From: Sphyrna mokarran
Taxonomy: Eukaryota
Assembly: GCA_024679065.1 (NCBI GenBank)
Contig: JAGIQG010000009.1
Coordinates: forward strand, 91,574,001 to 91,638,000
Direction: 5' to 3'
Length of the DNA: 64,000 bases
Every line of letters begins with the position of its first letter. Positions within the stretch are counted from its first letter, which is position 1. Position numbers and translations under genes: made by a program. The notes under the pieces were generated by a model. It was not told where the DNA came from. It made no database searches and saw only the letters and a list, made by a program, of their open reading frames with translations. Of the stretch, positions 21,436 through 63,047 are shown piece by piece.

Positions 21436-21487
21436 CGGGAGAGACCCAGGAAAAACACAGGGAGATGGAGAAAAGGATCAGCAACAT
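21436..21487 (-). CDS. Gene A leader (signal peptide) exon MLLILFSISLCFSWVSP(D)
   Basis: ATG plus 52 nt, hydrophobic, G|GTAAGT phase-1 donor matching the alpha1 acceptor; nearest intact leader upstream of alpha1-A. Confidence 0.82.
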
Positions 21488-21544
21488 TCTGGGAATCCAC
21501 TGTCCCAATTCCAATCAGTGATTGGGAATTAAACATTCTGAGGG

Positions 21545-21730
21545 TGAAACAGCTTGATAAACTGGGGGAAAAACACGAAAAAACAAAAACTTTCTCCAGA
21601 CTTCATTTTCCTGTCTAAATCGAGCATTTCCTTCTTGTAGAACCAGAGGGTGACTGATTGGTTAGTCTCAGAAAATTAACCAATGAAAGAGATAAACAGC
21701 CAGCCTGTCACTAGTTACCCGGAAGATCAA
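21545..21730 (-). promoter_or_regulatory. Class I-like proximal promoter: X-like, Y (ATTGG), CCAAT; TATA mutated; ISRE absent
   Basis: Minus strand CCGGGTAACTAGTGACAGG (21704-21722), ATTGG 21680-21684, CCAATCA 21655-21661; TATCAA at the TATA position. Confidence 0.6.
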
Positions 21731-21745
21731 ACTCACTCAGGTTCA

Positions 21746-22083
21746 GTAGGGAAGGCTTGCGAAAACTACACAAGGCACCAGTTAGACCACATCTGGAAAA
21801 CTGTCCCCTTTAGTCCCCTTATCTAAGAGAAAATATACTAGCATTGGAAGCAGTGCAGAGAAGATTCACTAGATTGAGCCCAGGTGTGGAGGGATTTTCT
21901 TATGAGGAGAGGTTGAGTAGATTGGGCCCGTACTCATTGGAGTTTAGAAGAATGAGAGGTGACCTGATTGAAATGTATAAAATTCCCAGAGGGTTTGACA
22001 GTGTAGATGCTGAGAGGATGTTTCCCCCTGTGGGAGAGTCTAGGACCAGAGAGTAGAATCTCAGAGTAAGGTGTCACCCATTT
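21746..22083 (+). mobile_element. CR1 RT C-terminal fragment
   Basis: EAVQRRFTRL...YEERLSRLG. Confidence 0.85.
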
Positions 22084-22159
22084 CAAACTCTCACCAAAAG
22101 ATTCAAATTCACCCCAGAGAGAGAGAGAGTGAGAATAGGAGAGTGAATTCTGTACTTAG

Positions 22160-22211
22160 CGGGAGACACCCAGGAAAAACACAGGGAGATGGAGAAAAGG
22201 ATCAGCAACAT
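22160..22211 (-). pseudogene. Orphan leader exon copy with dead donor (CTAAGT) and no promoter
   Basis: 52-nt copy of the leader; GT changed to CT; homology to the promoter ends about 50 nt upstream of the ATG. Confidence 0.8.
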
Positions 22212-22433
22212 TCTGGGAATCCACTGTCCCAATTCCAATCAGTGACTGGGAATTAAACATTCGAAGGAGGAAACTAATATTGTTTATTGTGATCGGAAAA
22301 CATAAAAAAAATGTTGATAAGGGCTCCAGTTGCCTGTCTTCATTAAAATGTGATCAGTTCCCTGACGTTAAGCCACACAGTAAGAATTTAGTAACACCAA
22401 TTTTAAATCGAACCGATTTATTTGATAGTAAAA

Positions 22434-22469
22434 TTGCGAGCTTTCAACACTCTGTTCTTCCTCAGGCAA
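22434..22469 (-). ncRNA. Minimal type I hammerhead ribozyme motif (left Penelope arm)
   Basis: TTGC-CTGAGGA-AGAACAGAGTGTT-GAAA-GC-TC-GCAA. Confidence 0.65.
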
Positions 22470-24221: not shown

Positions 24222-24258
24222 TTGCCTGAGGAAGACACAGAGTGTTGAAAGCTCGCAA
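24222..24258 (+). ncRNA. Minimal type I hammerhead ribozyme motif (right Penelope arm)
   Basis: TTGC-CTGAGGA-A-GACAC(AGA)GTGTT-GAAA-GC-TC-GCAA: stem I TTGC/GCAA, core CUGANGA...GAAA, palindromic AGCU in place of stem III. Confidence 0.7.
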
Positions 24259-28860: not shown

Positions 28861-28904
28861 TCAGTCACTCAGTGGAGCTGTTGTGTACGTCCCACTTGGT
28901 GAAT
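28861..28904 (-). CDS. Gene B putative cytoplasmic exon (DSPSGTYTTAPLSD*)
   Basis: Same acceptor, frame and stop as in gene A. Confidence 0.5.
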
Positions 28905-29310: not shown

Positions 29311-29430
29311 CTCTCCGCTGTCTTTTCCAGATGATTATTCCGATTATTCCAAATATAACAGCCAGTGCAGGGATCACTGTTCCGATTATAATTCCTAAAT
29401 TGAAATTTCCTCCACAGTTTTCTGGTATTT
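29311..29430 (-). CDS. Gene B connecting peptide/TM exon
   Basis: 120 nt, TTTTTCAG acceptor, G|GTAAGA donor; EIPENCGGNFNLGIIIGTVIPALAVIFGIIGIIIWKRQRR. Confidence 0.88.
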
Positions 29431-29809: not shown

Positions 29810-30088
29810 CCCACTGATAGAGCTTGGGCTCTGCCAGGCTGCTGTGTTCAATTTGACAGGAGTATTGATTCTCATCCCCAGCATTTATTTCAATCTCTTT
29901 CTGAATCTGATGGCTCCCATCATGGTTTGGTCGAATTCCCGAGGATAGTGTTTCAGACATTACCTCTCCATTCCTTAACCAGTTCACCTCGATGTCTGCA
30001 GGATAAAAGCCAGTAACCAGGCAGGAGAGAGTGAGGGGCTTGTCCTGACTATTGGGCTCACTTCTGGAGATGAAGACTTCAGGCTGAA
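29810..30088 (-). CDS. Gene B MHC class I alpha3 exon
   Basis: 279 nt, canonical splice sites, both Ig Cys present, 5 aa differences from gene A. Confidence 0.93.
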
Positions 30089-30205
30089 CTGTAATGGGAA
30101 AGGGTGAAAACACAAACAATAAACCCACACTGAATGGAATGGGAGAACGGTTTGATAAATCAGTGAAGTTAGAGCAGAACATGGACTTAAAACTGAATTC
30201 AATAC

Positions 30206-30480
30206 CTTTCCGTCCAAAATATACTTTTCCAGCTTGTAAATATAACAACAAATATTTCACCAAGACTTTTTCAAGACTTGTTTTCCAATAGTTGTTCCAG
30301 GATTGATCCGAATCCCATTTCTCTTTGTCTTCACTGCCATGTGATTGGATGCGACCCATCTCATTCTGTTGGGCTCTAAACTGATATGGTCTTTTCCATC
30401 AAATCCAACTCTCATCGATCTCTTTATGGAGCCGTCTTCAGCAATCTCAACAATTAGGATCCATTGAAAAACGTGAATTC
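30206..30480 (-). pseudogene. Gene B alpha2 exon with a 1-nt deletion (frameshift) at about 30326
   Basis: 275 nt versus 276 in gene A; the homologous peptide is split between ORFs 30257-30508 and 29655-30359. Confidence 0.85.
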
Positions 30481-37753: not shown

Positions 37754-38014
37754 CAGATGTCTGGTTTGTGTTCTTCATTATCGAATTCAGACTCTCCTTT
37801 GCCATGTCTGATCGTTTAATTATGATAGATGTAATGCTTTCCCAATATTCCTCACCAAAAAATTCCACCATGAATTGCTGTCTGGGAATTAATCGAGGAA
37901 TGTGAGTGTCATGATAATTAAGTAGAACTCCCTTCACTATTGCAACATTAGTAACCTCAGGAAGATCACCGATTCCGGAGATTGCCGTGTATATCACAGT
38001 CAGTGAGTCAGTAT
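37754..38014 (-). CDS. Gene B MHC class I alpha1 exon
   Basis: 261 nt, ATTTTACAG acceptor, G|GTAAGA donor; TDSLTVIYTAISGIGDLPEV...EEYWE...TNQTSG. Confidence 0.92.
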
Positions 38015-39796: not shown

Positions 39797-39848
39797 TGGG
39801 AGAGACCCAGGAAAAACACAGGGAGATGGAGAAAAGGATCAGCAACAT
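39797..39848 (-). CDS. Gene B proximal leader exon (intact ATG, A|GTAAGT donor)
   Basis: 52 nt MLLILFSISLCFSWVSP(N), 1.8 kb upstream of alpha1-B. Confidence 0.82.
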
Positions 39849-39909: not shown

Positions 39910-40100
39910 ACAACTTTATAAACTGGGTGGAAAACATGAAAAAAACCTAAACCTTATCCAACCTCCATGTTCCCATCTGAATCAGACTTTGCTCATTTCT
40001 TTATTGCAGAGCCAGAGAGTGACTGACTGGTTTGTCTCAGAAAATTAACCAATTAAAGAGATGAACAACCAGCCTGTCACTAGTTACCAGGAAGATCAAA
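39910..40100 (-). promoter_or_regulatory. Proximal promoter: X-like, Y, TATA; truncated upstream by CR1 (no ISRE)
   Basis: CCTGGTAACTAGTGACAGG, a 19-nt spacer, then ATTGG (40049-40053); TATAAA near 39915-39920. Confidence 0.62.
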
Positions 40101-40117
40101 CTCAGACAGGTTCAGAT

Positions 40118-43949: not shown

Positions 43950-44250
43950 AAGGTACAAAGATCATAGCATCAAGGACCCAGGTTCAATTCCCGGCTTGGG
44001 TCACTGTCTGTGTGGAATTTTCACTTTTTACCCGTGTGTGCGTGGGTTTCCTCCGGGTGCTCCGGTTTCCTCCCACAATGCGAAATGTGTGGGCTAGTGG
44101 ATGGCCATGGTAAATTGTCCCTTAGTATCAGGGATACTAGCCAGGGTTAATGCATGATGTTATGGGTATGGGGTCTGGGTGGGATTGTGATCGGTGCAGA
44201 TTCGATGGGCTGAAAGGCCTCCTTCTGCACTGTAAGGATTCTATGATTCT
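43950..44250 (+). mobile_element. HE1/V-SINE-like SINE
   Basis: GGTTCAATTCCCGGCTTGGGTCACTGTCTGTGTGGA...CTCCGGTTTCCTCCCAC...GATTCTATGATTCT; paralogs at 54280-54580 and (internally deleted) 14935-15080. Confidence 0.78.
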
Positions 44251-44614
44251 GTGAGGGAGATGGACAATCCAGAGCAGGATCTCCACTGACCTTCACATTC
44301 CCCTTTAATACATGTTCCCCTTTCTACATGTTCACGAGTATACCCTCAGTTTGGAAAAGTCTAGGAATCACCAGGCAGGAATATTCCGATTTAAATTTCA
44401 CTCCCAGCTGTGGCTGCCTGGAAACACTCTCACCTCTGACTCAGTATGTTCTGGATTGAAGCTCCCATTCCAGAGACTGGGCTGCACACACAGTGTATTA
44501 CTGACAGAAATCTTTCTGTATCTGCTTTCTCCCTCACACCTTTTGTCAAAATACATTGGTAACTTTGGAATCTAACATCACTGCTCCAAAATCAAAGTAC
44601 AGATTTTAATTTGT

Positions 44615-46600
44615 TAAGAACATAAGAACCAGGAGCAGGAGTCGGCCACCTGGTTCCTCAAACCTGCTCCGCCATTCAGTAAGATCATGGCCGATATTCT
44701 TGTGGACTCAGCTCCACTTACCCGTCCGCTCACCATAACCCTTAATTCCTTTACTGTTCAAAAATTTATCTATCCTTGCCCTGAAAACATACAATGAGAT
44801 AGTTTCATCTGCTTCACTGGGCATGGAATTCCACAAATTCACAACCCTTTGTATGAAGAAGTTCCTCCTCAACTCAGTCATTAATTGGCTTCCCCTTATT
44901 TTGCGTCTATCTCCTGAGTTCTAGTTTCACCTGCTAGTGGAAACAAGCTCCCTGCTTCTACCTTATTTATTCCCTTCATAATCTCAGATGTTTCTATAAG
45001 ATCTTCCTCATTCTTCTGATTCCAATGGGTCTAACCCCAGTCTACTCAGTTTCTCCTCATAAGCCAACCTCTCAACTCCGGAATCAACCTAGTGAATTTC
45101 CTCTGCACCCCTTCCAGTACCAGTAGACTCTTTCTCAAGTAAGAAGACCAAAACTGTACACAAACTCCAGGTGTGACCTCACCAGCACCTTATACAGCTG
45201 CAACATAATCTCGCTGTTTTTAAACTCCATCCCTCTGGCAATGAAGGACAAAATTCCATTTGCCTTTTAAATTACCTGCAGCACCTGTAAACCAACTCCT
45301 TGAGATTCTTGCACAAGAACACCCAGGTCCCTCTGCACAATAGCATACTGCAATTTTTTACTGTTTAAATAATAGTCCATTTTGCTGTTATTTCTTTCAA
45401 AATGGATTACCTCACATTTACCAGTATTATACTCCATCTGCCAGATCCTCGCCCACTCACCTAGATTATCTACATCCCTTTGCAGACTTTCAGTGTCCCC
45501 TTCATACTTTGCTCTTCCACCCATCTTAGTATCATCTGTGAATTTTGACACACTACACTTGGTCTCCAACTCCACATCATCTATGTAAATCGTAAACAAT
45601 TGCGCCCTAACACTGACCCCTAAAGCACGCCACTAGTCACTACTCACCAGAAAAACACCCATTTACTCCCACTCTTTGCATTCTGTCAGTTAACCAATCC
45701 TCTATCCATGCATTACCTGTAAAATCAGACACCTTTATCTTATGTAGCAGTCTTTGGTGCGGCACTTTGTCAAATGCTTTCTGCACATTAAATATATCAC
45801 ATCCACAGGTTCCCCATTGTCCACTGCACATGTAATGTTCTCAAAGAATTCCACCAAATTCGTCAAACATGACCTGCCCTTCATGAACCCATGCTGTGTC
45901 TTACCAATGGAACAATTTATATCTAGATATCTCACTATTTCTTCTTTGATGATAGATTCAAGCATTTTCCTTATTTCAGAAGTTAAGCTTATCAGCCTGT
46001 AGTTACCTGCCTTTTATCTACCTCCTTTTTTAAACAGTGGCATCACATTTGTTGTTTTCCAATCTGTGGGAAACACTCCATGGCCCAGCGAATTTTGGTA
46101 AATTACCACGAGTGCATTTGTTATTTCCTGCTGACATTTCTTTAAGTACCCTAGAATACATTCCATCAGGATGAGGAGATTGTCGATCTTTAGCCCCATT
46201 AACTTGCCCAACACTCCCTCTTTTATGATAATGATAGTTTCTAGGTTCTCACCTGCCATAACCTTCCTGTCATCAATTTTTGGCATGTTATTTGTTTCTT
46301 CCATTGTGAAGACCCACACAAAATATCTGTTCAATGCCTCAGTCATTTTTTCATTTCCAGTTATTACACCCTGTTTTTCATCCTCTATGGGACCAAAGTT
46401 TACTTTCACCACTCTTTTTCGTTTTATATATTTGTAGAAACTTTTGCTCTCTGTTTTCATATCCTGAACTAGTTTACTCTCAAAATCCATCTTACTTTTC
46501 TTTATAGCTTTCTTTATGGCTTTCTGCTGATCTTTAAAGATTTCCCAATCCTCTAGGTTCCCAACAATTTTTGCCACTTTGTATGCATTTTCTTTCAATT
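44615..46600 (-). mobile_element. CR1 RT remnant (paralog of 15665-17625)
   Basis: QHGFMKGRSCLTNL, KAFDKVPHQRLL, KFTDDTK. Confidence 0.88.
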
Positions 46601-46953
46601 TGGTATCCTCCATCCTTCCCTCTGTTTCTGGACATTTCCACTTTAATTGCTCCAAGCTTCTCTGATCAGGGTGTTTTGAACGTACAAACATGGAGCAGGA
46701 AGAGGCCATTCGGCCCCTCGAGTCTGCTCTGTTATTCTGTGGCTGAAGTGATTGTGATCTGAACTCTACTTTCCTCTCAATCTCTCTGTACACTTTCACT
46801 CCCGTGTCAGTCATGATGTTATCTAACATTTATATCTGACAGATACACAATAATGTCTGAGTGAACATCACCCATTTCAAACTCTCACCAAAAGATTCAA
46901 ATTCACCCCAGAGAGAGAGAGAGTGAGAATGGGAGAGTGAATTCTGTACTTAC

Positions 46954-47005
46954 CGGGAGAGACCCAGGAAAAACACAGGGAGATGGAGAAAAGGATCAGC
47001 AACAT
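46954..47005 (-). CDS. Distal intact leader exon (candidate alternative first exon of gene B)
   Basis: 52 nt, ATG and G|GTAAGT intact; no alpha1 exon between it and the 39797 leader. Confidence 0.7.
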
Positions 47006-47069: not shown

Positions 47070-47335
47070 ACTTTATAAAACTGGAGGAACAACACAAAAC
47101 TACAAAAACTTTATCCAAACTCTGTTTTCCCGTCAAAATTGAACTTTGCTCGTTTCCTTATTGCAGAACCAGACGATGACTGATTGGTTAGTCTCAGAAA
47201 ATTAACCAATTAAAGAGATAAAGAGTCAGTCTGTTCCTCGTTTCCAGGAAGATCAAACTCAGACAGGATCAAGTTCAGGCTGATAAAAATCTAATCTTTA
47301 CCCAGCACTTTTCACAAAGTGAAACTTCCCCAAGG
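47070..47335 (-). promoter_or_regulatory. Most complete class I-like promoter: kB-like/ISRE, X-like, Y, CCAAT, TATA
   Basis: Minus strand GGGGAAGTTTCACTTT (47316-47331; ISRE AGTTTCACTTT), ATTGG 47206-47210, CCAATCA 47181-47187, TATAAA 47072-47077. Confidence 0.72.
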
Positions 47336-48194
47336 ACAGCTTTATAAAACAAAGATTGACCCAGAGACACACACAGCTCATTGCATAAAAACTGTCTCCA
47401 AATTCCAGGGTTGAAGGAGTGTTTTAAAGAGAGGCTGCAGAGAGGTGTAGGGAGGGATTACAGAGTGAAGGACCGAGGTTACTGAAGGCACAGTTCCCAG
47501 TGTGGGGGAGATTCTAATCCCTGAGACTGCAGATATCAGAATGAGAGGAACCCCGAGATCCCACAGAGTTTGTGAAACTGGAGGAGATTACAGAAATAGG
47601 ATGGTGTGAGGACATCGAGAGATTTCAATTTTAAAATTTGGGGCAGAGGGAGTAGTGCCTTCATTTCAAAGAGAGTGGAATATCAAAGTAGGGAAAGCTT
47701 GCTAAAACTATTCAAGACACCAGTTAGACCACATCTGGAAAACCGTGATCAGTTTTAGTCCCCTTATCTAAGGGAAAATATACTGGCGTTGGAAGCAGTC
47801 TAGAGAAGGTTCACCATGTTGATCCCAGGTATGGAGAGATTTTCTTATGGGGAGAGGTTGAGTAGGTTGGGCCTGTATTCACTGGAGTTTAGAAGAATGA
47901 GAGGTGACCTTATTGAGACATCTCGAATTCTCAGGGATTTGACAGGGTAGATGCTGAGAGGGTGTTTCTCCCTGTGGAAGAATTCCAAGACTGCAGATGA
48001 GGTTGATGAGCTGCATCTCCTCAATACCTTTGAGAATTGCTATGGGGCTAGCAGGGAAGGGTGAGGAAGGAATGGTCACTGATGGTCAGGTCGGGGTTCA
48101 CCATGGACATGAGCATTTCCAAAACCTGAGTTCAAATGGCCCAATCCAGGTAATGGCATACTGCCCAGACACTTGTCCCTTTCTACTTTCCTTG

Positions 48195-49560
48195 TATTCT
48201 AGTGGAATACAAGGAAAGTAGAAAGAAACTTAAGCAAGGAGTAAGGAGGGCTAAAAAGGGTCACGTAAAAGCACTGGCCAGCAGGATTAAGGAAAATCCC
48301 AAGGATTTTCTTACATATGTAAAGAGCAAGAGGGTCGCCAGGAAAAGAGTGGGTCCACTCAAGGACAAGGGAGGGAATCTATGTGTGGATCCAGAGGAAA
48401 TGGGCAAGGTATTAAATGAATACTTTGCATCAGTATTCACCAAAGAGAAGGACTTGGTGGATGATGACTCTGGGAAAGGAGGTATAGATAGTTTGAGTGA
48501 TGTTGAGATCAAAAAGGAGAATTTATTGCGGTTCTTGAGAAACATTAGGGTGGAGAAGTCCCCAGTGTCTGATGGGATATACCCCAGAATACTGAGAGAG
48601 GCAAGAGAGGAAATTGCTGGGGCCTTGAGAGAAATCTTTGTATCCTCACTGGCTACAGGGGAGGTCCCAAAGGATTGGAGAATAACCAGCGTTGTTCCTT
48701 TGTTTAAGAAGATTTAGCAAGAATAATCCAGATTATTACAGGCTGGTGAGCCTTCCGTCAGTGGTAGGGAAATTATTGGAGAGATTCTTTGAGACAGGAT
48801 TTATTCCCACTTGGAAATAAGTAAACATATTAGTGAGAGGCAACATGGTTTTGTGAAGGGGAGATCATGTCTCACAAACATGATCGAGTTTTTTGAGGAA
48901 GTCACAAAGATGATTGATGAGGATAGGGCAGTGGATGTTGTCTACATGGACCTCAGTAAGACCTTTGATAAGGTCCTTCATGGCAGACTGGTGCAGTAGG
49001 AGAAGTTGCATGGGATCAGAGATGAGCTGACAAGGTGGATACAAAACTGGCTCAATCAGAGAAGATTAAGAGTAGCAGTGGAAGGATGTGTTTCTGAATG
49101 GAGGGCTGTTACAAGTGGCATTCCTCAGGGATCAGTGCTGGGACCTTTGCTATTTGTAGTATATATAAATGATTTGGAGGAAAATGTAACTGGGTTGATT
49201 GATGAGTTTGCAGATGACACAAATGTTGGTGGTTTTGTGGACAGCAATGAGGACCATCAGAGGATACAGCAAAATATAAATTTGTTCGACACTTGGGCAG
49301 AGAGATAGCAGATGGAATTTAATCCGGATAAATGTGAGGAAATGCACTTTTGAAGGTCTAATACAGATAGGAAATATGCAGTAAACAGCAGAACCCTTAG
49401 GAGAATTGATAAGCAAAGGGATCTAGATTTACAGGTACGCAGGTCACTGAAAGTGGCAATGTAGTTGGAGAAGGTTGTCAAAAAGGCATATAGCATGCTT
49501 GCCTTCATCAGCTAGGGCATTGAGTTTAAAAATTGTCATGTCATATTGCAGCTTTATAGA
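48195..49560 (+). mobile_element. CR1 RT remnant (paralog of 9570-10910), cut off by Penelope
   Basis: [41 protein letters not shown]. Confidence 0.9.
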
Positions 49561-51715
49561 TGTGGAGATGCCGGTGTTGGACTGGGGTAAACACAGTAAG
49601 AAGTTTCATAGGTTAAAGTCCAACCAGTTTATTTGATAGTAAACCCACAAGCTTTTGGGGTTTGCCCCTTTGTCAGGTGAGTGGAGAGTTCTGAAGAGAT
49701 GTGTATTGTCTCCGGACAGGACAGTAAGTGAAATGTTGCAAGTTCAGGCAAGTTGTGGGGGTTACAGATAGTGTGACATGAACCCAAGGATGAGGCCTTC
49801 CTCAGTCTCCGCTCAGTAACTCTGCGCTGTTGTGTGTTGTGAAAGCCGCCTTGGAGAACGTTTAACTGACAATCAGAGGCCGAATGCCTGTGACCGCTGT
49901 ACTGTCTGGAGACAATACACATGTCTTTAGCCCATGCCTAATGCTATCTGCACTCACATTGTCTGCATCTTTAAGGCTTGAATGACAGGTTAGCTGTGAA
50001 GGCTCGCATTGTAATCAGTATTCTGTAAACTGTGTGTGCCTTTTATATGCTCTGTTTGAGACCAGAACTCTCCACTCACCTGACAAAGGGGCAAATCCCA
50101 AAAGCTTGTGAGTTTACGATCAAATAAACTGATTGGACTTTAACCTGGTGTTGTGAGACTTCTTACTGTATTTACCCCAGTCCAACACCGGCATCTCCAC
50201 ATCAGAACAACCATCGACACTGCAAACTGCCGGATCCAAGTGGAGAGGATCTCCAAGAAGATTGCACATATCGACGCAGACATCAAGTTTTTATAAAGAT
50301 GCAAGAAAGCGGACAAGATACCGAAAAGACTACAGATCATGGACCCACTCAGTTTAACCTATAACGCAGACCACGCTGAGAGACTTTGCTTTTGCACGCC
50401 TCTCACACTCTCCAACCACTTCATACACCAACTCTATAGCAAATGCCGCATCCTGGAAACCAAGATAGAATACATATTCTCAACTTGCACTCAGGACTCA
50501 GATCAGCTGCAAAACACTGCCAAGCGGATGAGACAAAGAAACTACACCATCTACATGCACATCAAGAACAGGAAACTTGAGAAACTCAGCATCACCACCA
50601 GCAGCAACCAAGTCTCCCCCGGTCCCACAATAGAAAACAGTACCACCGCAGAGAGGTCCATTGTCAACTTGTCGGACTACACACTTCAACCAGATGAAAT
50701 CGAAGTTCTCAGCTGAGGACTCAATTTCTGCCCCACCACCAGAATGGACCCCATCAGTCTCGCAGCAGATACAGAGGAATTCATCAGGTGAATGAGGCTG
50801 CAGGAGTTCTTCCACAAAACACAAGAGGCCAACAGTGAACACAATGAGATAGCCAATGAACAGGAACAGCTGAAGAGAGATCTACAGTGCAGCAAACAAA
50901 GAGGAGAGAGTCCAATTGGACTCCTGCAGAAGGCCGCTGCCCTCGACTGGACATGTTTGGCCAAGTCATCAGGAGGTACATCAACATCAGATTCATCAAC
51001 CGCACTCACAAGACAGCCTCGAACATCATCTGAGCACAATGCAACACCATCAACACTCTTAAGACCAACAGTAACATTGTCATCAAAACAGCAGACAAAA
51101 GAGGGACCATTGTCATATTGAACAGAACAGATTACACTGAGGAACACTACAGTTACTGTAGATCCGACCAAAGAACACACCGTCAATTCAACAGACTGAT
51201 CAAGACCTTTGATTTGGACCTTTAGAGTATCCTCCATGCTCTCATCCCACATACCCCCTGCGTTGGAGATCTCTACTGTCTCCTTCCCAAAGATACACAA
51301 GGCAAACACACCCAGCGGTCCCATCGTCTCGGGCAATCGGACTCTGTGCGAAAACCTCTCCGGCTACGTCGAGGGCATTCTGAAACCCATTGTACAACGA
51401 GCCCCCAGCTTTTGTCACGACACTATGGATTTCCCACGGAAACTCAGCATACATGGAACAGTTGAACCAGGGACACTCTTCGTCACAATGGATGTCTCGG
51501 TGCTCTACACCAACATCCCCCACGACGATGGCATTACTGCAACAGTCTCAGTACTCAACACCGACAACCGACAATTTCCGCATGCAATTTTACAACTCAT
51601 TTGCTTCATCCTGGACCATAATATCTTCACCGTCAACAACCAGTTCTTCATCCAGACACAAGGAAGAGCCATGGGGACCAAACTTGCACCTCAATAAACC
51701 AACATCTTCATCCGC
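49561..51715 (+). mobile_element. Penelope-like element 5' part: inverted pLTR, pLTR and decayed RT ORF
   Basis: 49561-49710 is the reverse complement of about 50060-50202; RT motifs PKIHK, PIVSG, VTMDVSVLYTNIPH, GRAMGTKLAP; degenerate hammerhead motifs at 49643-49682(-) and 50074-50113(+). Confidence 0.87.
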
Positions 51716-51719
51716 AAGT

Positions 51720-54245
51720 CAGCCAGAGACCTCCAAGTCTCAGCCTCCCAGGGGTCTCCAACCAAGGGGGATCACAGGCCACTGGGTGTGGAATGCAGTA
51801 GGGTGTCTCCCCAGCCAATGTGCATCCTGAGGGGTCACCCAGGTAAAGACCTTGTAAAATTCAGAAGTTCTAGTGTCAACAGGAGGGCAGAAGTTAAGGT
51901 TTGCACTAGTTAGAAAAAGGACACTAGATACTGTTTAGAATGACATACCTCTGTTATATTGCACAATTAAATATCATCCCTTCATGTTATTTGTACTGTT
52001 AGTTTCACCAAGAAATAATATTGTATCCCCAGCTGTGGCTAATCTTTCTGTGATTCCTGCCCTACAGGGATGACCGTATCCTGACCACACACAAAGAGGC
52101 GCAGAACGTCATGCTGTTGGACAGAGGCCCTTTGGCCAGTAGGCACAGACAGCCTGCCCTGGTATCTCCAGCACCCACCGCAACCTGTGACAACCTCCCT
52201 CACCCCCACAGAGTTTTGGTCCCCCCCCTTAACCCCACACAGCCCACTGACTGCATGTCTATGTCCGAGACCCACACTCATACATGTGTGCACGGGTGCC
52301 AGTGTAAACAGAGAGGGCAGGTAGGATTCAGATTTATGTGCCACCAGAGCAGCATCACAGTGTGCTGCAAAGTGAGTCATCATCACCCGCCTGCCTGGAC
52401 GAAGGACTTGGAAGCGTGCCCAGCCCACTCCCATCACCCTGGTGAGATGCCATTTGAACCCTTGTTCCCGCCAGCCATCCCGGCAGCCTGAGCTGGTCCT
52501 GAAAGAGACCTGGGAATGTCCGAACTCTGGAGGATGTACCTGTTGTGCACACACTCCCTGGGTGTTGTACACACACGTACATGATATTCAGCCTGTGGTC
52601 ACGGACAATCTGCACATTCAGGAAGTGCAACCCCTTCCTATTGATGAAGTGCAGTCCCTGATCATGTGGGATGCACTGGATAATGTGAATGCCATCTCCA
52701 GCCCTCTGCACATGGGGCAGTGCAGTGATGGTGGTGAAACCTGCAGCCTGGACTTCCTGTTGGGCCTGATCCATGTTGAAGTGGATGTAATTGGCTGGAT
52801 TCCTGGGAGGATCTGGTGGTGTAGAAGTTGAGGGCACCGTGACCTTCACTGCCACCGGGAGTGGGTGTCCTCCTGTGCCTCGAGTTCCCATGTCTGAGGA
52901 GCTGAAACAGGTGCCACACTGTCTCCTTACTGAGACGGAGCTGACAGCATCATGTGGCTTCCATCATCCCTGCAAAGCATCTACAAGTGCTGTACACTCT
53001 GAGCCTCCACCTCCTCATTCCTCTCCCCCCACTCCCCTGTGGCAGGATGTACTGCCATGTCCTGGCCCTGACCGGCAGCCCCCTGCCCTCCTGCTGTGGC
53101 TTCTGCCTTCTGGCCACACAGGGAGGGAAGAGGAGTGGGTTTGCTAGGCTACCCATTGCAGACCTTGAGGCTTGGGTATGGGTGCTATCACCGCAGTACC
53201 TTCCAGGGACATGTTTCATTTCAGACAGTCGGGACAGGGGCAGCCTCGTGACTATCACAGGATGGGTTCCCATCGCAGGCAGCAGTGCAGAGTCCAGGCA
53301 GTGTGAAGAACCATGTTAACAACTGCACAGCTCCTGTGCTTGGAGCAGCAGCTGACAGAGCTGCTGTCTGTTACTGTTACTGGGCCCTGGGATACAAGGT
53401 CTGGAGTCAGCCGCAGTGCCTGTCCAGCAGACAGACAGCAAAACAAACAGGTCAATATTTGTGGGTTGGTGATGAACATTATGTGGCACCTTTCGGGGGT
53501 CTCTGTGTAGCCTGGGGAAATGTGTGCACCATGAACCTGCTGCAAGTGGTGACTCCCAGCACTGGTCCCCCCGGGGGAGGTGGTGGTGAAGTGGACTTGT
53601 CCTGAGACTGAGGGAAATAATCTGGCACCTGGGTTCGAATCCCACCATGGCAAATGGTGAAATTTGAATTCAATAGAAGTCTGGAATTAAAAATCTAATG
53701 GTGACCAGAAACTGTTATCTATTGTCACAAATACCCATCTGGCTCACTAATGTACTTTAGGGAAGAAAATCTGCCATCCTTACCTGGTCTGGTCTACATG
53801 TGACTCCAGACCCACAGCAATGTGGTTGAGTCTTAAATGCTCTCAGGAATGGGTAATAAATGCTGGCCCAGCCAGTGACACCCACATCCCATGAACAAAT
53901 AAAAAAGACCTCCATCCCACCCCAGCAACATTGCAGCCCCTGAGTATCCGGTGCCCCGTTTCCCCTGAACTCCGGGGGCTGCCGCTCAATGGGACTTTCC
54001 TCCTCACTCTCCTTCGCTATTGCTGCCCCAGGCCCAGACTTTTATAAACTGTGATTCATGCTGGAGTGACGTCACGCTGGAGAGGAGGGAAAGGTACAAG
54101 AGGGGGAAAAGGGCCGTGCCAAACTCTAATGATATGTAAACATATTCAAATCCATGGAAACTAACAACCCGCCAGAAAAAAATAGCCTGGCAGAATGCTG
54201 AACCACCTGACGTTGGGCGCAAATTCAATTGTTCGGCTCGCGGCC
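51720..54245 (-). mobile_element. Harbinger transposase remnant (paralog of 12360-14894)
   Basis: GDGIHI...FINRKGLHFLNVQIVRDHRLNI...PGSV; frameshifted. Confidence 0.8.
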
Positions 54246-55167
54246 TATTGTCCTGCCCCACTAACCAATCAACCAATGCAGCAGGGTGCAAAGATCACAG
54301 CACAAAGTACCCGCGTTCAATTTCCGGCTTGGGTCACTGTCAGTGTGGAATTTATATGTTCTCCTCATGTGTACGTGGGTTCACTCGGGTGCTCCCGTTT
54401 CCTCCCACAGTCCAAAATATGAAGATTTGTGAATGGCTATGGTAAATTGCCCTTAGTATCAGGGGTACTAGCCGGAGGAAATGCATGGGGTTATGGGGAT
54501 AGGGCTTGGATGGGACTGTGATCAGTGCAGACTTGATGGGCCGAAAGGCCTCCTTCTGCACTGTAAGGATTCTATGATTCTGTGAGGGAAATGGACAATC
54601 CAGAGCAGGATCTTCACTGACCTTCACAGAGCATTTTAATTCCCCTTTATACATGTTCACGAGTATACACTCAGTTTGGAAAAGTCTATGAATCACCAGG
54701 CAGGAATATTCTGATTTAAATTTCACTCCCAGCTGTGGCTGCCTGGAAACACTCTCACCTCTGACTCAGTATGTTCTGGATTGAAGCTCCCATTCCAGAG
54801 ACTGGGCTGCACACACAGTGTATTACTGACAGAATGCTGCACTGTCAGAGGATCAGTCCTGAGGGAGAACTTTCCTCACAGATTAATGGAATAGATCCCG
54901 GGACAGAGCAGGATGATCAGAAACTGGATCAATACTGATCCCTGAGACAACATCATCCATGTAGATTGTCTAATCAGAGTTTCCTGCACCATAACAGTGA
55001 GGACACTAGAAAAGGTATTTCATTGGCTGGAAAGAGCTTTGGTGCATCCTGGTGTTGTGAAGTCTTTCTGTATCTGCTTTCTCTCTCACACCTTTTGTCA
55101 AAATACATTGGTAACTTTGGAATCTAACATCACTGCTCCCAAATCAAGGTACGGATTTTAATTTATT

Positions 55168-58100
55168 AAGAATAGGAGAACCAGGAGCAGGAGTCGGCCA
55201 TCTGGCCCCTCAAACCTGCTCCGCCATTCAAAAAGATCATGGCCGAACTTCTTGTGGACTCAGTTTCACTTACCCGCCAACTCACCGTAACCCTTAATTC
55301 TTTTCCTGTTCAAAAATGTATCTATCCTTGCCTTAAAAACATTCAGTGAGGAAGCCTCAACTACTTCACTGGGTAGGGAATTCCACAGATTCACAACCCT
55401 TTGTGTGAAGAAGTTCTTCCTCAACTCATTCCTAAATCTGCTTTTCCTTATTTTGAGGCCATGCCCCCAAGTTCTAGTTTCACCTCCCAGTGGAAACAAC
55501 TTTCCTGCTTCTATCTTATCTGTTCCCTTCATAACGTTAGATGTTTTTATAAGATCTCCTGTCAGTCTTCTGAACACCAAAGAGTATAGCTCCAGTCTAC
55601 TCAATCTTTTCTCATAAGCCAACCCTCTCAACTGTGAATCTCCTCTGCACCCCTTCCAGTGCCAGTATATCCTTTCTCAAATAAGGAATCCAAAACTGGT
55701 GAGGTATATCCTCAGCAGCACCTTATACAGCTGCAACATAATCTCACTGTTTTTAAACTCCATCCCTCTGGCAATGAAGAACAAAATCCCATTTGCCTTT
55801 TTGATAACCTGCTGCACCTGTAACCCAACACTTTGCGATTCCTGCACAAGGAAACCGGCTCCGTCTGCACACCTGCATGCTGCAACTTTTTATCATTCAA
55901 ATCATAGTCCATTTTGCTGATATTCTGACCAAAATAATTGACCTCACATTTACCAACATTGTACTTCATCTGCCAGATCCTCGCTCACTCACTTAGATTA
56001 TCTATATCTCTTTGCAGACTTTTAGCATCCTCTGCACACTTTGCTCTTCCACCCATCTAATTGTCATCTGTGAATTTTGACACACTACACTTGGTCTCCA
56101 ACTCCAAATCATCCATGTAAACTGTAAACAATTGCAGTGGCAACATTTATCCCTGAGGCACACCACTCGTCACTGATCACCAGAAAAACATCCATTTACC
56201 CCCAGTCTTTGCTTTCTGTTAGTTAACCAATCCTCTATCCATGCTAATACCCATAACACTGTGCATCTTTATCTTATGCAGCAGTCTTTGGTGCGGCACC
56301 TTGTCAAATATCTTCTGGAAATACAGATACATCACATCCACAGGTTCCCCATTGTCCACTGCACATGTAATGTTTTCAAAGAATTTCACTAAATTCATCA
56401 AACATGACCTGCCCTTCATGAACCCATGCTGTGTCTTACCAATGAGGCAATTTATATCCAGATGTCTCGCTATTCCTTTTTGTGTGATAGATTCAAGCAT
56501 TTTTCATGCTACAGAAGTTAAGTTTACCAGCCTATAGTTACCTGCCTTTTATCCACCTCCTTTTTGAACAATGGTGACACATTTGCTGTGTTCCAATCTC
56601 TAGGAACCTCCCCAGAGTCCTGTGAATTTTGGTAAATTACCACTTGTGGAATTGCTCTTTCTCTCGCCATCTCTTCTAGTATCCTGAGATGCATTCCATC
56701 AGGACCAGGAAATTTGTCTATCTTTAGCCCCATTAACTTGATCAATTTTACATCTTTCATGATAATGATAGTTTCTGGGTTCTCACCTCCAAAGTTTTCT
56801 TCCCACAGCCTTTTTGGCATGTTATTTGTGTCTTCCAGTGTGAAGACCCACACGAAATACCACTCAATGCCTCAGTCATTTTCTCATTTCCAGTTATTAC
56901 ATATCTCTTCTCATCCTCTAAAGGATTCATGTTTACTTTCACCACTCTTTTTCATTTTTATATTGAGAGAAACTTTTGCTCTCTGTTTTTAATATTCTGA
57001 GCTAGTTTACCCTCATTCTCCATATTACCTTTCTTTAGCTTTTCTCATGGCTTTCTGTTGACCTTTAAAGATTTTTCCATCCTCCAGTTTCTCACTAATC
57101 TTTGCCATTTTGTATGCATTTTCTTTCAATTTGATTCCCTCTTTTATTTCCTCAGATATCCATGGCTGATTATCTCTTTTTCTACAGTCCTTCCTTATCA
57201 CTGGTGTATACTTTTGCTGAATACTGTGAAAGATTGCTTTGAAAGTCTTCCTCACGCTCCATCTGTACTTTAAATTCAACCATACTGTGCTCGCTTCTTC
57301 CAAAAGGATTCCCAACTACAAGATCATTCATTATACCCAGCTCGTTCCCCAGGTTGCTTGCTCCCTTATCGGTCCCATTCCATACTGTTCAAGGAAGCTA
57401 TCGTGGATACATTTTATGAACTCCTCCTCAAGGCTGCCTTGACCGACCTGGTTTGACCAATTGATACTAAGATTAAAATCCCCCATGATAATTGCTGTAC
57501 CATTTTTACATCCATCAGTTATTTCTTTGTTTATTTCTCGCCCCACAATGATGACATTATTTGCTAGTTTATAAACTACGCCAATCAGTGACTTTTTCTC
57601 CTTACTATTTTTAATTTCCACTCAAATGGATTCAATCTTTTTTCCATAGAACATGTATAATTTTACACTATCCGATATTTCCTCTCATTTCTACTCTAAC
57701 GCGCGGCACCACTAATAATCCTGAAATCACTACCTTTATGATCCAATTTCTTAACTTTCTTCCTAGCTCCCTATATTCTGCTTTTAGGACCTCATACTTT
57801 TTTTAACCTGTGTCGCTTGTACCAACATGTGCTACAACCATGGGGTGTTCACCCTCCCGCTTCACAATGTCCTGCAGCCACTCCGAGACATCCTCGACCG
57901 TAACACCACGGAGGCAATATACTATCTTGAAGTCTTGCTGCAGCCACAGAAATGCCTGTCTATTGCCCTTACAATTGAATCCCCTATAACTATTGTACTG
58001 GCACACTTTTTACTCCTCCCCTCTGCAACAGAATCAACCTTGGTGCAATGAGTTTAGCTGCTGCTGCTTTCCCTAGAGAGGTCATTCCCCTCAACAGTAT

Positions 58101-58440
58101 CCAAAGCGGTATATCTGTTTTACAGGGGAATGGTCACTGGAGATTCCTGCACTACCTGCCTATCTCTCTTGCTCTGTCTGGTGGTCACCCATTCTTTTCC
58201 TGCCTGTGGAGTCTGAGCCTGCGGTGTGACCACCTCTCTATACCTGCTATCCACAATACTCTCTGACTCACGGATGCTCCACAGTGTTTCCATCCGCCAC
58301 TCCAGTTCTGAAACTCGAGCTTCCAGGAGCTGTAGCTGGAGACATTTCCCATACACATACTGACTCAGGAGACTGGAACTGTCCCCAGCCTGTCACATGG
58401 AGCAAGAGGAGTAAACCACTGCTTGGAGCTCTCCCATCAT
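55168..58440 (-). mobile_element. Near full-length decayed CR1 LINE including ORF1 remnant
   Basis: GKCLQLQLLEARVSELE, VVAHVGTSD, MGDFNL.INW, QHGFMKGRSCL. Confidence 0.88.
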
Positions 58441-58740
58441 GTCTTACCCCTTTCAATTAAACTTTTGAAAGATCTTTTGTTTCAGATATATACAATTTTC
58501 TTTCTTTCCTGCTCCTTGTTACTACCGAATACAACCTTTTCAAACTATAAACCACAGAAATTACACAGAAACACTATAATAGTGTACAACAACTACAATG
58601 CCAAGAGCAAAAAGAAAAAATATTTCCCAATTAGTACTCTCGCTTGTAGCCTCTGCTGCCTGTTTCACCTAACTCCCTGTGTCCATCCAACTCCCAAAGC
58701 ACTCCTCACAGTCAGACAGCACTCTGTACAGGAAAAATAT

Positions 58741-58966
58741 GATGTGGAAATGCCAGCATTAGATTGGGGTAAACACAGTAATAAGTCTCACAACACAAGG
58801 TTAAAGTCTGAAGGTTATTTGATAATAAACATCCTTCTTCAGGTGATTCCAGAGTTCTGAATGGAGAACTTTCCACTCACCTGATGAAAGAGGTGCATTC
58901 CGAGAACTAGCGGCGTTTACTTTCAAATAAACCTGTTGGACTTTAAAGTGGTGTTATGAGACTTCT
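58741..58966. mobile_element. Solo fold-back Penelope pLTR with 14-bp TSD
   Basis: TACAGGAAAAATAT at 58727-58740 and 58967-58980; empty site near 20807-20820; CACCTGATGAA core remnant. Confidence 0.8.
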
Positions 58967-59577
58967 TACAGGAAAAATATAACATCGAAGCAACCAGGAG
59001 CCGAACCTGGAATCTTCTGATCTTGTTTTCTGCTGTTAATATTTTATCTTTTCCTCTTTGGTACTACAAAGTATTTGATTACTAAATCTCTTGTGTTATC
59101 TTTAATGGTTCCATATCTCCCAGAGTCACTCATTTACTGTTAATATATTTCAATAAACTTTTACCATTAGTCTTTATATTACCTACACATTTTCACAATG
59201 TCCTTTATCTCAATTTAATCTTTTTGTTCCTCCATCTTTCCCTCTGTTTCTGGACATTTCCACTTTAATTGCTCCAAGTTTCTCTGATCAGGATGTTTTG
59301 AACGTACAAACATGGAGCTGGAGTAGACCATTCGGCCCCTCGAGTCTGCTCTGCCATTCTGTGGCTGATGTGTTTGTGATCTGAACTCTACTTTCCTCTC
59401 AATCTCTCTGTACACTTTCACTCCCTTGTCAGTCATGATGTTATCTAACATTTATATCTGACAGATACATAATAACGTCTGAGTGAACATCACCCATTTC
59501 AAACTCTCACCAAAAGATTCAAATTCACCCCAGAGAGAGAGAGAGAATGAGAATGGGAGACTGAATTCTGTACTTTT

Positions 59578-59629
59578 CTGGAGACACCCAGGAAAAGCAC
59601 AGGGAGATGGAGAAAAGGATCAGCAACAT
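59578..59629 (-). pseudogene. Leader exon copy with destroyed donor (AAAAGT)
   Basis: ATG intact; GT replaced by AA. Confidence 0.8.
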
Positions 59630-59689: not shown

Positions 59690-59950
59690 AACAACTTTAT
59701 AAGTTGGAGGGAAAACACGAAAAAACAAAAACTTTATCCAGGCTCCATTTTCATGTCTAAATCGGACTTTGCTCTTTTCCTGATTGCAGAATCAGAAGAT
59801 GACTGATTGGTTAGTCTCAGAAAATTAAGGAGAGAAAGAGTCAGTCTGTTCCTCGTTACCAGGAAGATCAAACTCAGACAGGATCAAGTTCAGGCTGATA
59901 AAAATCTAATCTTTACCCAGCACCTTTCACAAAGTGAAACTTCCCCAAGG
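59690..59950 (-). promoter_or_regulatory. Promoter copy with kB-like/ISRE, X-like, CCAAT and TATA; Y box deleted
   Basis: AAAGTGAAACTTCCCC at 59931-59946; GTTACCAGG present; AATTAAGGAG replaces AATTAACCAATTAAAG. Confidence 0.62.
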
Positions 59951-60050: not shown

Positions 60051-60126
60051 CAGTAAGAATTTAGCAACACCAATTTTCAATCCAACCGTTTTATTTGATA
60101 GTAAATCTGCGAGCTTTCAACACTCT
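60051..60126 (-). mobile_element. Tiny Penelope pLTR tip, same family as 22381-24349
   Basis: CAGTAAGAATTTAGCAACACCAATTTT...GCGAGCTTTCAACACTCT matches 22378-22453. Confidence 0.75.
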
Positions 60127-60714
60127 TTCAACACAATGGGATTGGATGGCAAAACCTCAGAGTAAGATGTCACCCATTTAAGATAGAGATGTGGAGGAAT
60201 TTATTCTCTCAGCGTGTACTGTCTCTTTGCAATTTTTTCCTTCAGATTTCAGTGGGGGCTGAGCCATTAAGTATAGTCAACCTGAGATCGACAGATTGTT
60301 AGTGAGTTAGGGAACAGAAGGTTAATGGGATAAGATGGGAAAGTGGAGCTGAGGATTATCATATCAGGATCAGTCATAATCTCATTGAATAGTGGAGTGA
60401 CCCAATAGGATCAATTGGGTCCACCTGTTCCTATATCTTCCGGATTTATAAGTCACTTCCCTGGGAACTTACAGGTCAGTGAGCACAGGGGTAGCCGAGG
60501 AACACAGAGCTCAGTGTGAGGGTTCATGGTGTGAGCTGTAAGAGTCTGAGGGATATTGATCGGATGTATGTGGAGAGGATGTAGTGTTTAAAATAAGGGG
60601 ATCAGTGTTTAAAATAAGGGGTCTTCTGTTTAAGACAGAGATGAGGAGAAATGTTTTCTCTTGAGAGTCACAAGGCTCTGAAACTCCTCCAAGGCCATGG
60701 AAGCTTTGAATATT

Positions 60715-61000
60715 TGGCACAGTTGGTAGCACTGCTCCCTCACAGAGCCAGGGACCTGGGTTTGATTCCCGGTTTGGGTCACTGTCTGTGTGGAGTTTGC
60801 ACATTCTCCACGTGTCTGCGTGGGTTTGTTTCAGCTGCTCTGGTTTTTTCCCACAGTCTGAAAGATGTGCTGGTTGGGTGCGTTGGCCACGCTAAATTCT
60901 CCCTCAGTGCACCCGAACAGGCACTTGAGTGTGATGACTAGGGGCTTTTCACAATAACTTCATTGCATTGTTAACGTAAGCCTACTTGTGACAATAAGTA
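60715..61000 (+). mobile_element. HE1/V-SINE-like SINE
   Basis: TGGCACAGTTGGTAGCACTGCT...GGGTTTGATTCCCGG...V domain...GCCTACTTGTGACAATAA. Confidence 0.8.
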
Positions 61001-61029
61001 AACTTCTAACTTTTCTTTGGGAGAAGAAA

Positions 61030-61365
61030 TTATAACTTAAATCTGTGTTAAATGATCATCCCCTTATTCTGTGACTCTGCTCTCTGATTCTACACTCTCC
61101 CACAAATGGAAACATTCTCTCAACATTTACCCTCTCTAACCCCCTCAGACTCTTAAATGTTTCAATCATATCACCGCTCATTCCTCGGAACTCCAAGGAG
61201 CACAGACACAATCTGTTTAATCTTTCCTCATATGGCAGTCCCTCTGTACCCAGGATCATCCTAGTAAACCTCCTCTGTACTGCCTCCAGTGACAATATAT
61301 TTCCTTAAATAAGGAGACCAAAACTGTGTGCAATATTGTAACTGTGGCCTCACTAATAGCTTGTA
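61030..61365 (-). mobile_element. CR1 RT C-terminal fragment
   Basis: [12 protein letters not shown]...YEERLNRL. Confidence 0.8.
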
Positions 61366-61799
61366 TCTTGAAGGGGATGGGAGGTGCTGCTGAGGGAGGG
61401 TGGATGGCAGTGAGGGTGTTTAACTGGCAGCCCGGGGCTGGGATTTACAGGTGTGCACCTCCAATTCCAGCCCCGTCCCCGTGACAGCCACTCAGGCTCG
61501 CACTTCCTCACATTCCGACTCCCAAACGTGAGGCACCAACTGCCGCTGCGCTTGGAAGAAATGACAATTCAGGCATTGCGGGCTGGCTGTCCCCCTGATT
61601 CCATACTCCCATCCTCACTGTGCAGGCCTGAGGGAAATATGGGTAATGTACAAACAACAAAAAATCAGATGCTGCTGATGCTGATCCATTCCTCATTCAT
61701 TTTCTGTGTCTATATTAAACAATTACAGCGAACCAAGACGGGTACCTGTCATCGGCCAGCAGCGTAAAGAGTAGCTGATGGTTAATCCGACTTTTTATT

Positions 61800-62665
61800 C
61801 AACGAACAGAACACAGAACATAGAACACAGAACACAGAACACAGAACATAGAACATAGAACACAGAACACAGAACATAGAACACAGAACACGGAACATGG
61901 AATATGGAACATTACAGCACAGTACAGGCCCTTCAGCCCTCGATGTTGCACTGACCAGTGGAACCAATCTAATGACCCTCTAACCTAAACTATTCCAATG
62001 TTATCCATATAACTATCCATTGACCATTTGAACACCCTTAAAGTTGGCGAGTCCACAACTGCTGCAGGCATGGCATTCTACACCCTTACTACCCTCTGAG
62101 TAAAGAACCTGCCTCTAACATCCGTCCTATAATTATCACCCTTCAATTTAAAGCTATGTCCCCTCGTGTTAGACATCACCATCTGAGGAAAAAGGCTCTC
62201 AGTCTCCACCCTATCTAACCCTCTGATCATCTTGTACGCCTCAATTAGGTCATCTCTTAGCCTTCTTCTCTCTAATGAAAATAAGCTCAAGTCCCTCAGC
62301 CTTTCCTCAAAAGACCTTCCCACCATACCAGGCAACACCAGGGTAAACCTCCTCTGCAGTCTTTCCAATGCTTCCACATCTTTTTTTTAATGCGACGACC
62401 AGAACAGTACGCAATAGCCCAAGTGTGGCTGCACCAGAGTTTTGTACAGTTGCAACATGATCTTGCAGCTCTGAAATTCAATCCCTCTACCAATAAAAGC
62501 TAACACACTTCTTAACAACCTAACCAATCGAGGTGCCAACTTTCAGGGACCTATGCACATGTACACCGAGGTCTCTCTGCTCGTCGACACTACCAAGAGT
62601 CCTTCCATTAGCCCTATATTCTGTACTCCTGTTCCTTTACCAAAGTGAATCACCTCACACTTTTC
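61800..62665 (-). mobile_element. CR1 3' fragment with expanded 7-bp tail repeat (AGAACAY)n at 61805-61912
   Basis: LERLQRRFT...RGRFFTQRVV; same family as 2975-3790. Confidence 0.88.
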
Positions 62666-62995
62666 CAGAGCGTTTCGAAGACTTTAGACTCGGAGTGATG
62701 AAGCTGTTTTGCTTCTCCCAATGGAAGTGAAAATTAGAATAGTCCATTTGAAGCATTTTCCATTTGTTCCAAGTTTCTCTGCTCTGGGTGTTTGTACATC
62801 CTGCTGTCAGAAGAGCTGAACACCAATCCCATCAGAGTCTTCCACACTGTGCTGACTTCAATGGTGTCAAATATCAGGCTGGCTATATAATAATGTCTGA
62901 GCAAACATCACCCTTTTCAAACTCTCACCAAAAGATTCAAATTCACCCCAGAGACAGAGAGACAGAGAAAATGGAAGGGTGAATTCTGTACTTAC

Positions 62996-63047
62996 CGGGA
63001 AAGGCCCAGGGAAAACACAGGGAGACGGAGAAAAGGATCAGCAATGT
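62996..63047 (-). pseudogene. Leader exon copy lacking the start codon (ATG to ACA) and promoter
   Basis: Donor GTAAGT intact, ATG lost; positional paralog of 22160-22211. Confidence 0.78.

Follow-up and report, generated by a model that had tools for sequence, protein, structure and literature searches.

Why do two class I genes of a shark come with six first exons? The question is raised by a stretch of 64,000 nt from Sphyrna mokarran (GenBank assembly GCA_024679065.1, contig JAGIQG010000009.1, positions 91,574,001 to 91,638,000 of the forward strand), hereafter the window, which lies in a tandem array of shark nonclassical class I genes, probably UEA. It holds two class I bodies, A and B, each comprising alpha1, alpha2, alpha3, transmembrane and cytoplasmic exons. 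A first-pass annotation of the window had found six copies of a 52-nt leader exon and read the surplus as alternative promoters or shadow enhancers, arisen as each gene duplicated its own head of promoter and leader. We consider it likely instead that other genes of the array left the four extra leaders behind as orphan 5' ends when unequal recombination removed their bodies. Transcription is predicted to start at the head nearest to each body, since this is the only head with an intact SXY-like promoter module.

Leader exons in the window and across the array

All six leaders lie on the minus strand, and their coordinates, ATG lesions and donor lesions matched those annotated before. We refer to each by its first coordinate.

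21436..21487, minus strand: leader of the head nearest to gene A; ATG and GT donor intact
22160..22211, minus strand: extra leader, distal type; donor CT, no promoter module found within 800 nt
39797..39848, minus strand: leader native to gene B; ATG and GT donor intact, start of the intron g2-like
46954..47005, minus strand: extra leader; ATG and GT donor intact, sole candidate for a second first exon
59578..59629, minus strand: extra leader; donor AA
62996..63047, minus strand: extra leader, distal type; ACA in place of ATG, six differences from the majority exon

The leaders encode the same 17 residues, and MLLILFSISLCFSWVSP is the reading of five of the six. Among the extra copies, the ability to start and splice (ATG and donor) is retained by 46954, whose exon shows no difference from the majority exon, and lost by 22160, 59578 and 62996. 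Gene B has, as annotated, two splice-competent first exons about 7 kb apart (7,157 nt from 39797 to 46954) that encode the same signal peptide. The two differ in single letters: the last is A in 39797 and G in 46954, and 39797 has a G at -5 relative to the ATG. A 27-nt piece of the leader gave 26 genome-wide matches at up to three mismatches, all of them on contig C1548 between 90.7 and 91.75 Mb, and its reversed control gave none, so the matches are not due to chance. Nor are the copies duplications made by the assembly, since similarity among the heads of a single gene is no more than 46-76% at +140 to +540 and the array is free of gaps.

We added 380 kb around the window and surveyed the resulting 444 kb, numbering the genes g1 to g14 in coordinate order, with A as g9 and B as g10. 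The single run of N in these 444 kb falls outside the array. The survey counted 25 leaders against 16 alpha1 exons, including one inverted fragment and one gene of another lineage. On the same (minus) strand there are 23 leaders for 13 headed bodies; one more sits on the inverted fragment and one on a single-copy gene. Two plus-strand heads were left out of the counts of 13 nearest versus 10 extra heads given below. The surplus of leaders, which the first-pass annotation had wanted followed across the array, extends beyond the window, while the ratio of 6:2 does not generalize and is a local extreme within the 444 kb.

Promoter modules and ancestry of the extra heads

A 65-nt block with S-, X1-, X2- and Y-like boxes, which we name after the known consensus, is common to the nearest heads and lies about 200-265 nt ahead of the ATG. 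A distant paralog, 4.9 Mb away, has this block too. In the array modules, S and X are separated by 15 nt and X and ATTGG by 18-20 nt; for mammalian major histocompatibility complex (MHC) promoters, PMC4374748 reports 16 nt for S-X and 20-22 nt for X-Y and describes the spacing as critical. Using X + 18-22 nt + ATTGG as query, with at most three mismatches and the gene B module as reference, we obtained 15 sites in the 444 kb, against 0.05 per shuffle (20 shuffles). These comprise all 13 nearest heads, the single-copy gene and one unrelated site, and none of the 10 extra heads; intact modules and headed bodies stand at 13:13 across the array. The modules of the window are the following.

21680..21744, minus strand: gene A module (X box, 20 nt, ATTGG)
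40049..40113, minus strand: gene B module, intact, used as reference
47206..47270, minus strand: 46954 module, worn; spacing and Y box intact, two changes in the X1 box and two in the X2 box
59821..59885, minus strand: 59578 module; Y box deleted, X2 box changed
63253..63449, minus strand: 62996 module, split by a repeat insertion; X-Y distance 153 nt versus 20

With its four mismatches, 46954 is one over the limit and borderline, and 22160, 59578 and 62996 have no intact promoter of their own. The earlier proposal of alternative promoters is thus not supported for three of the four extra heads, which are dead as exons and whose modules are missing, split or devoid of a Y box. A further SXY-like module, at L003:998 on the plus strand, is accompanied by no leader exon of this type and by a possible splice donor about 220 nt downstream.

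Leader exons are dead at five of the 10 extra heads and at none of the 13 nearest ones (Fisher p=0.0075; p=0.042 when the three copies that share the CT donor are counted once). This contrast and the deletion of both inner heads in gene g5, described below, speak against the extra exons having been kept by selection.

The closest relatives of the heads were found at other genes. For 21436 the best match is g11P (98%), for 22160 it is g8D (99%) and for 62996 it is g5D and g6D (92%), and the upstream sequences of 59578 and 46954 are closest to that of g7P (87-88%). Gene g2 has one head, and the segment 38216-40120, containing the 39797 head and its intron, is 88% like this head with its intron; the alpha1 exons of g2 and gene B are 92% identical, and we therefore regard 39797 as gene B's own head. 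Behind 46954 and 59578 the intron begins as in A-type genes with a long intron, and at +140 to +540 these two heads are 46-50% like 39797. Each is followed by an intron without an alpha1 of its own.

43459..46953, minus strand: truncated long-type intron 1 behind 46954; groups with the gene A intron, not with that of 59578
47982..59577, minus strand: nearly whole long-type intron 1 without alpha1, behind 59578; distal part 90-95% like the introns of g7, g11 and g12, all complete genes

In a tree of a 900-nt intron block, the intron of 46954 grouped with that of gene A (100/100) and the intron of 59578 with those of g7, g11 and g12 (100/100). Approximately unbiased (AU) tests rejected monophyly of the four gene B heads (p=1.6e-52) and of the two gene A heads (p=3e-98), as well as a sister relationship between the introns of 46954 and 59578 (p=6e-31; p=1e-7 with g7, g11 and g12 allowed in). 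The promoter trees were computed leaving out g5P, which carries an insertion, and a tree of the leader and the first 395 nt from nine long-intron heads did not resolve. A distal-type head is present in eight of the 13 headed genes, 0.7-4.9 kb beyond the proximal-type head. The eight distal-type promoters form one clade, beside the heads of the complete genes g13 and g14, and the doublets 21436/22160 and 59578/62996 were therefore inherited with whole-gene duplication and not formed gene by gene. Judged by these sequence comparisons, the extra heads are related to the heads of other genes rather than to their neighbours, contrary to the proposal that each gene had duplicated its own.

Fragments of a long interspersed nuclear element (LINE), a class that we read from the translation and take to be CR1, lie at the following places in the window.

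9041..9350, plus strand: CR1 fragment near the 3' end of gene A intron 1; 84-89% like 21745-22037 and 47671-47981
21745..22074, plus strand: CR1-type fragment separating the two gene A heads; a 10-nt microhomology marks its join to the 22160 head
47671..47981, plus strand: CR1 fragment within which similarity to the end of intron 1 gives way to similarity to head-upstream sequence; putative recombination junction

The intron of 59578 tracks that of gene A to within about 930 nt of alpha1 and then gives way to head-upstream sequence. Its join to 46954 falls in a 310-nt CR1 fragment common to the ends of intron 1 and to the DNA upstream of heads (47671-47981, 9041-9350 and 21745-22037). At the 22160-type join, at 22074, the microhomology is between the intron of the head and the CR1 copy; at 43459, no homology junction was identified. 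The reciprocal product is also present, as the headless body g1 (L038:2406-2663 and L040), with a stop in alpha3. The locus displays the marks of birth-and-death evolution: its extra parts are closest to parts of complete genes, its junctions lie in repeats or microhomology, and it contains reciprocal products and pseudogenes (g1, g6).

Joins of this kind are what unequal recombination would be expected to leave; from the trees, we infer body deletion and not head copying. Crossing-over between same-orientation CR1 fragments, one at the end of intron 1 and one upstream of a head, would have deleted a body and left 59578 before 46954, and a second deletion would have put 46954 before gene B's own head. 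The distal-type 22160 and 62996 may derive from one older orphan, copied along with whole genes.

Gene g5, the leader core and competing explanations

Gene g5 (C1548 ~91.466-91.483 Mb; alpha1 at C1548:91,465,672, L010:1410-1672; head at C1548:91,482,710, L011:8710-8761) has a B-type body from which both inner heads are deleted. Across some 9 kb spanning alpha1 and intron 1 it is 96-99% like gene B, and its only two deletions of at least 10 nt (1,531 and 518 nt) each take out one inner leader; random placement, calculated post hoc, removes both in 1.8% of 200,000 trials. The g5 exons are open, and the B-type body stands behind a head of the long-intron type, 17 kb away, with a full module that an insertion has displaced to -448. 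Run X3 contains spliced alpha1-alpha2, alpha2-alpha3 and alpha3-transmembrane joins. A g5-like contig of 596 nt from this run differs from gene B alpha2 by five letters and one gap, the same count as g5 and including site 30409; it stops short of the leader. We infer that g5 is expressed from a foreign head, in an apparent promoter swap outside the window.

Recombination of parts extends beyond the heads. The alpha1 exons are 56-98% alike and the alpha3 exons 93-98% (matrices without g1 and the inverted alpha1 fragment), and the transmembrane exons are shuffled relative to alpha1; in g12, an alpha1 94% identical to that of A is combined with a transmembrane exon 98% identical to that of B. As far as their sequences tell, the head (promoter, leader and first 90 nt of intron 1), the groove and the backbone are evolutionary modules. 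In this evolutionary sense the modular system envisaged by the first-pass annotation stands, on the evidence of the transmembrane shuffling, the g5 head swap and a homogenised leader core.

This core, of 190 nt (-48 to +140), is 94-97% identical between head types, against about 70% in both flanks. The CT donor is scattered over the promoter tree; g4D, g8D and 22160 have it, and g11D lacks it although its similarity to 22160 is 98%. The single-copy class I gene, which is UDA-like (L031:7644-7695 and 9362-9625), has the same leader and an intact module, and about 800 nt around its leader are 83-87% like the array heads. In other sharks, the single-copy gene likewise has the same leader as the array, although its domains are 26-42% like those of the array. 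Within a species, the two lineages share leader variants: R14 in C. punctatum, L6+R14 in Hemiscyllium and P13 in S. canicula. Mustelus and Stegostoma have the common leader form, and a difference was seen in Heterodontus (position 16) and in C. plagiosum (position 6); in this comparison isoforms are counted repeatedly and gene models may err, and the Rhincodon model was not comparable. Ray orthologs have a related but divergent leader. The identity of the core relative to its flanks, the scattered CT donor and the within-species variants point to repeated gene conversion of the leader core. Such conversion would keep orphan exons alike and young-looking, and an intact ATG and GT donor are therefore no evidence of use.

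If inner heads are deleted, an orphan could take over as the working head, as apparently happened in g5. On a wider view, which we put forward tentatively as possible, the array rewires promoters to grooves, with the orphan heads as a reserve of in-phase first exons and gene B as an intermediate in which 39797 and 46954 are both active. Conversion of a near-invariant leader core across two class I lineages would make heads interchangeable, and inner-head deletion would hand a body to a foreign promoter with the protein unchanged, for which g5 would be the example.

Several observations weigh against the orphan-head explanation. Body deletion yields the same layout as head duplication followed by recombination, and the array is a mosaic; half of the extra leaders (five of 10) are intact; and 39797 and 46954 were not rejected as sisters on a 165-nt promoter alignment (p=0.44). 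The mismatch limit and the reference module were chosen post hoc, with the data already seen. Moreover, g14, a head in working position, passes the limit with three mismatches, compared with four for 46954, whose X2 change also occurs in g7P, the nearest head of an open gene, and 46954 retains its ATG, a consensus donor and the correct X-Y spacing. These last features would suit 46954 if gene B used it as a second promoter; it would then be the orphaned head of another type of gene, providing the B-type groove with a second expression pattern and the same signal peptide. Its exon is without differences from the majority, its Y box lies at the 20-nt spacing, and g5 indicates that a foreign head 17 kb off can serve a B-type body. 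However, one of the four changes in its X box affects a letter that all 14 of 14 body-linked modules have in common, the g5 remnant lacks the two X1 changes, which probably reflect recent decay, and the sister copy in g5 has lost its exon and Y box; we regard such a role as unlikely. A tandem duplication of each gene's own head, its ancestry scrambled by later recombination and its products neutral or weakly enhancing, appears less likely still. Either outcome can result from unequal crossing-over at the same pair of CR1 fragments, the region is mosaic, and the upstream flanks of 46954 and 59578 are 84% alike, the second best match for each. Against this stand the AU tests and the grouping of the distal-type promoters with the heads of g13 and g14. 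Furthermore, the g2-type intron start of 39797 is unrelated to the other three (46-55%), so gene B's own head was not the source of the extras.

Retention of the orphan heads as shadow enhancers, as the first-pass annotation suggested and by analogy with the distal X-Y modules of mammalian MHC class II genes, is very improbable. Mammalian modules of this kind exist, to judge by the titles of references 61 and 62 in PMC7866136, and the 48 nt before the ATG, with ATTGG, are 96-97% conserved in the head groups compared. Nevertheless, the would-be enhancer element is split, deleted or mutated in all 10 extra heads, with none keeping an intact, correctly spaced X-Y module at up to three mismatches and 46954 borderline, spacing is critical according to PMC4374748, and g5 has deleted both inner heads. 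The explanation that we find hardest to credit is that the extra copies are assembly duplications or haplotype joins, an outcome that the first-pass annotation had named as one that would refute its own proposal. The assembly and run X1 do differ in gene B by two 1-nt indels and four substitutions, and X1 holds 0.66 of the sampled words; yet the copies differ by 3-18% in their shared flanks and have different neighbours, g5 shows the same architecture again, at 96-99% and with deletions of its own, and the array is assembled without a gap.

Gene bodies, identity of the array and related systems

In agreement with the first-pass annotation, only two alpha1 exons were found in the window. The exons of the two bodies are listed here.

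7847..8107, minus strand: gene A alpha1
6221..6496, minus strand: gene A alpha2; both disulfide cysteines replaced
5825..6103, minus strand: gene A alpha3
5351..5461, minus strand: gene A transmembrane exon
4922..4965, minus strand: gene A cytoplasmic exon, to the first stop
37754..38014, minus strand: gene B alpha1; 92-93% to g2 and g5, 66% to gene A
30206..30480, minus strand: gene B alpha2; one base short in the assembly, base present in run X1
29810..30088, minus strand: gene B alpha3
29311..29430, minus strand: gene B transmembrane exon; 98% to that of g12, a gene with an A-type alpha1
28861..28904, minus strand: gene B cytoplasmic exon, to the first stop

A first suspicion that the genes lack alpha3 was ruled out when this exon was located 117 nt behind alpha2. 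The intervening intron (6104-6220 and 30089-30205) has a length of 117 nt, a multiple of three, and is frame-open in most copies; its retention would add 39 residues. Gene B alpha2 has 275 nt in the assembly, which produces a frameshift with a stop. We compared reads of four runs over window positions 29000-30940. In the same-species DNA run X1, a long contig of 306 nt across the alpha2 site carries the missing base and differs in six other letters; it overlaps a B-specific contig by 30 nt and is an exact match to none of B, g2 and g5. Contigs from X3 and X2 carry the base as well. On these contigs gene B is not counted as a pseudogene, and the 1-nt loss may be an assembly error or a private allele. 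A B-specific contig over 30170-30234 was not found in X3, which is not evidence of silence.

Neither window gene retains the disulfide cysteines of alpha2, and among 13 alpha2 exons compared in the array g13 alone keeps the second one. In gene A, the equivalents of the peptide-anchoring positions 59, 84 and 159 are replaced and those of 123, 143, 146, 147 and 171 are kept, as compared by eye in the conventional numbering. Loss of peptide-anchoring residues is a reported feature of UEA.

The proteins closest to A and B are shark RefSeq class I entries named 'F10 alpha chain-like' (63-86% across the alpha2 query). Of the 81 protein hits, 80 bear the name of a shark, one is unnamed and none is from a ray. 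UEA is not known from rays. At C1548:90.78 Mb, some 0.6 Mb away, there is a BET-domain gene, and the array end is closed by the single-copy class I gene, whose white-shark relative is LOC121291255. Verissimo et al. 2023 (PMC10751288) assign LOC121291255 to MHC-Ib within a nonclassical cluster and place multicopy UEA and single-copy UDA in the shark class Ib cluster; UEA is for this reason the likely name. Multiple copies in sharks and a position in a class Ib cluster with a BET domain (brd2/b2m side) and a single-copy neighbour fit the UEA lineage. No record named UEA was returned by our searches. The gene b2m was not located beside the array.

Clustered protocadherins and UGT1A have variable first exons in a row that share one acceptor and phase. 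Those exons have intact promoters of their own and encode different domains, whereas here the same 17 residues are repeated and most extra copies in the window are dead. HLA class I regions are known to hold 5' and 3' gene fragments. MHC class I birth-and-death fragments and conversion, in the portion of Joly 2006 (PMC1397804) available, similarly involve partial genes among working ones and exons and introns homogenised within a species; here, by contrast, fragments stack directly before working genes, in the same orientation and phase, and can therefore take over as first exon. In teleosts, too, a long repeat-rich intron serves as a recombination site that re-pairs gene parts; in the accessible text of PMC6523485 intron 2 re-pairs alpha1 and alpha2 among alleles, while here intron 1 re-pairs promoter and leader with the body among paralogs, the protein being unchanged. 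The putative SXY-like module resembles the mammalian one in the available text of PMC4374748 and PMC7866136 in having three boxes in fixed order at similar spacing, its box identity being assigned by consensus and spacing. The shark class Ib cluster of PMC10751288 is alike in its multicopy array, the BET-domain gene about 0.6 Mb away and the single-copy class I neighbour; the available part of its text makes no mention of leader exons, promoters or orphan heads. Our literature search found no stacked leader exons in shark class I; Almeida 2020 and 2021 (UEA, UDA), which lie outside that search, may describe the shared leader.

The locus is best taken as a clear worked case of birth-and-death evolution homogenised by conversion. 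Leader counts overstate the number of genes or promoters here, and the SXY-like module provides one mark per headed gene and thereby points to the head that merits an assay. If g5 is expressed from a foreign head and 46954 is active, promoter swapping in class Ib would be a route to change where family members are expressed.

The window ends with the 3' flank of the next gene, at a boundary of the array unit.

63200..64000, minus strand: 3' flank of g11; 88% like 24350-25144

In gene g6 (C1548 ~91.489-91.501 Mb), alpha1 is followed by a GA donor, alpha2 contains a stop and the transmembrane exon measures 110 nt. Near the array end, at C1548 91.7186-91.7212 Mb, lie an inverted head whose start is dead and an alpha1 with a frameshift. 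Two more single class I genes were found, at L050 and L051; the alpha3 piece of the former is closest to PDB 9CH4, and the gene is possibly, at a guess, of a CD1-like lineage. A search with the A2M receptor domain did not place C4 and was not used. A tandem cluster of about 29 near-identical C1-set exons is located on the same contig at C1548 81.08-81.86 Mb. Within the window, 22375-24317 is a large inverted repeat (~98%) of two 250-aa frames, presumably resembling the end of a Penelope-type element, and the pair recurs upstream of g8. Finally, degenerate transposase remnants, which we take to be Harbinger-like, occupy 12029-14319 and 51708-54322 in the long intron 1 and were inherited with the heads.

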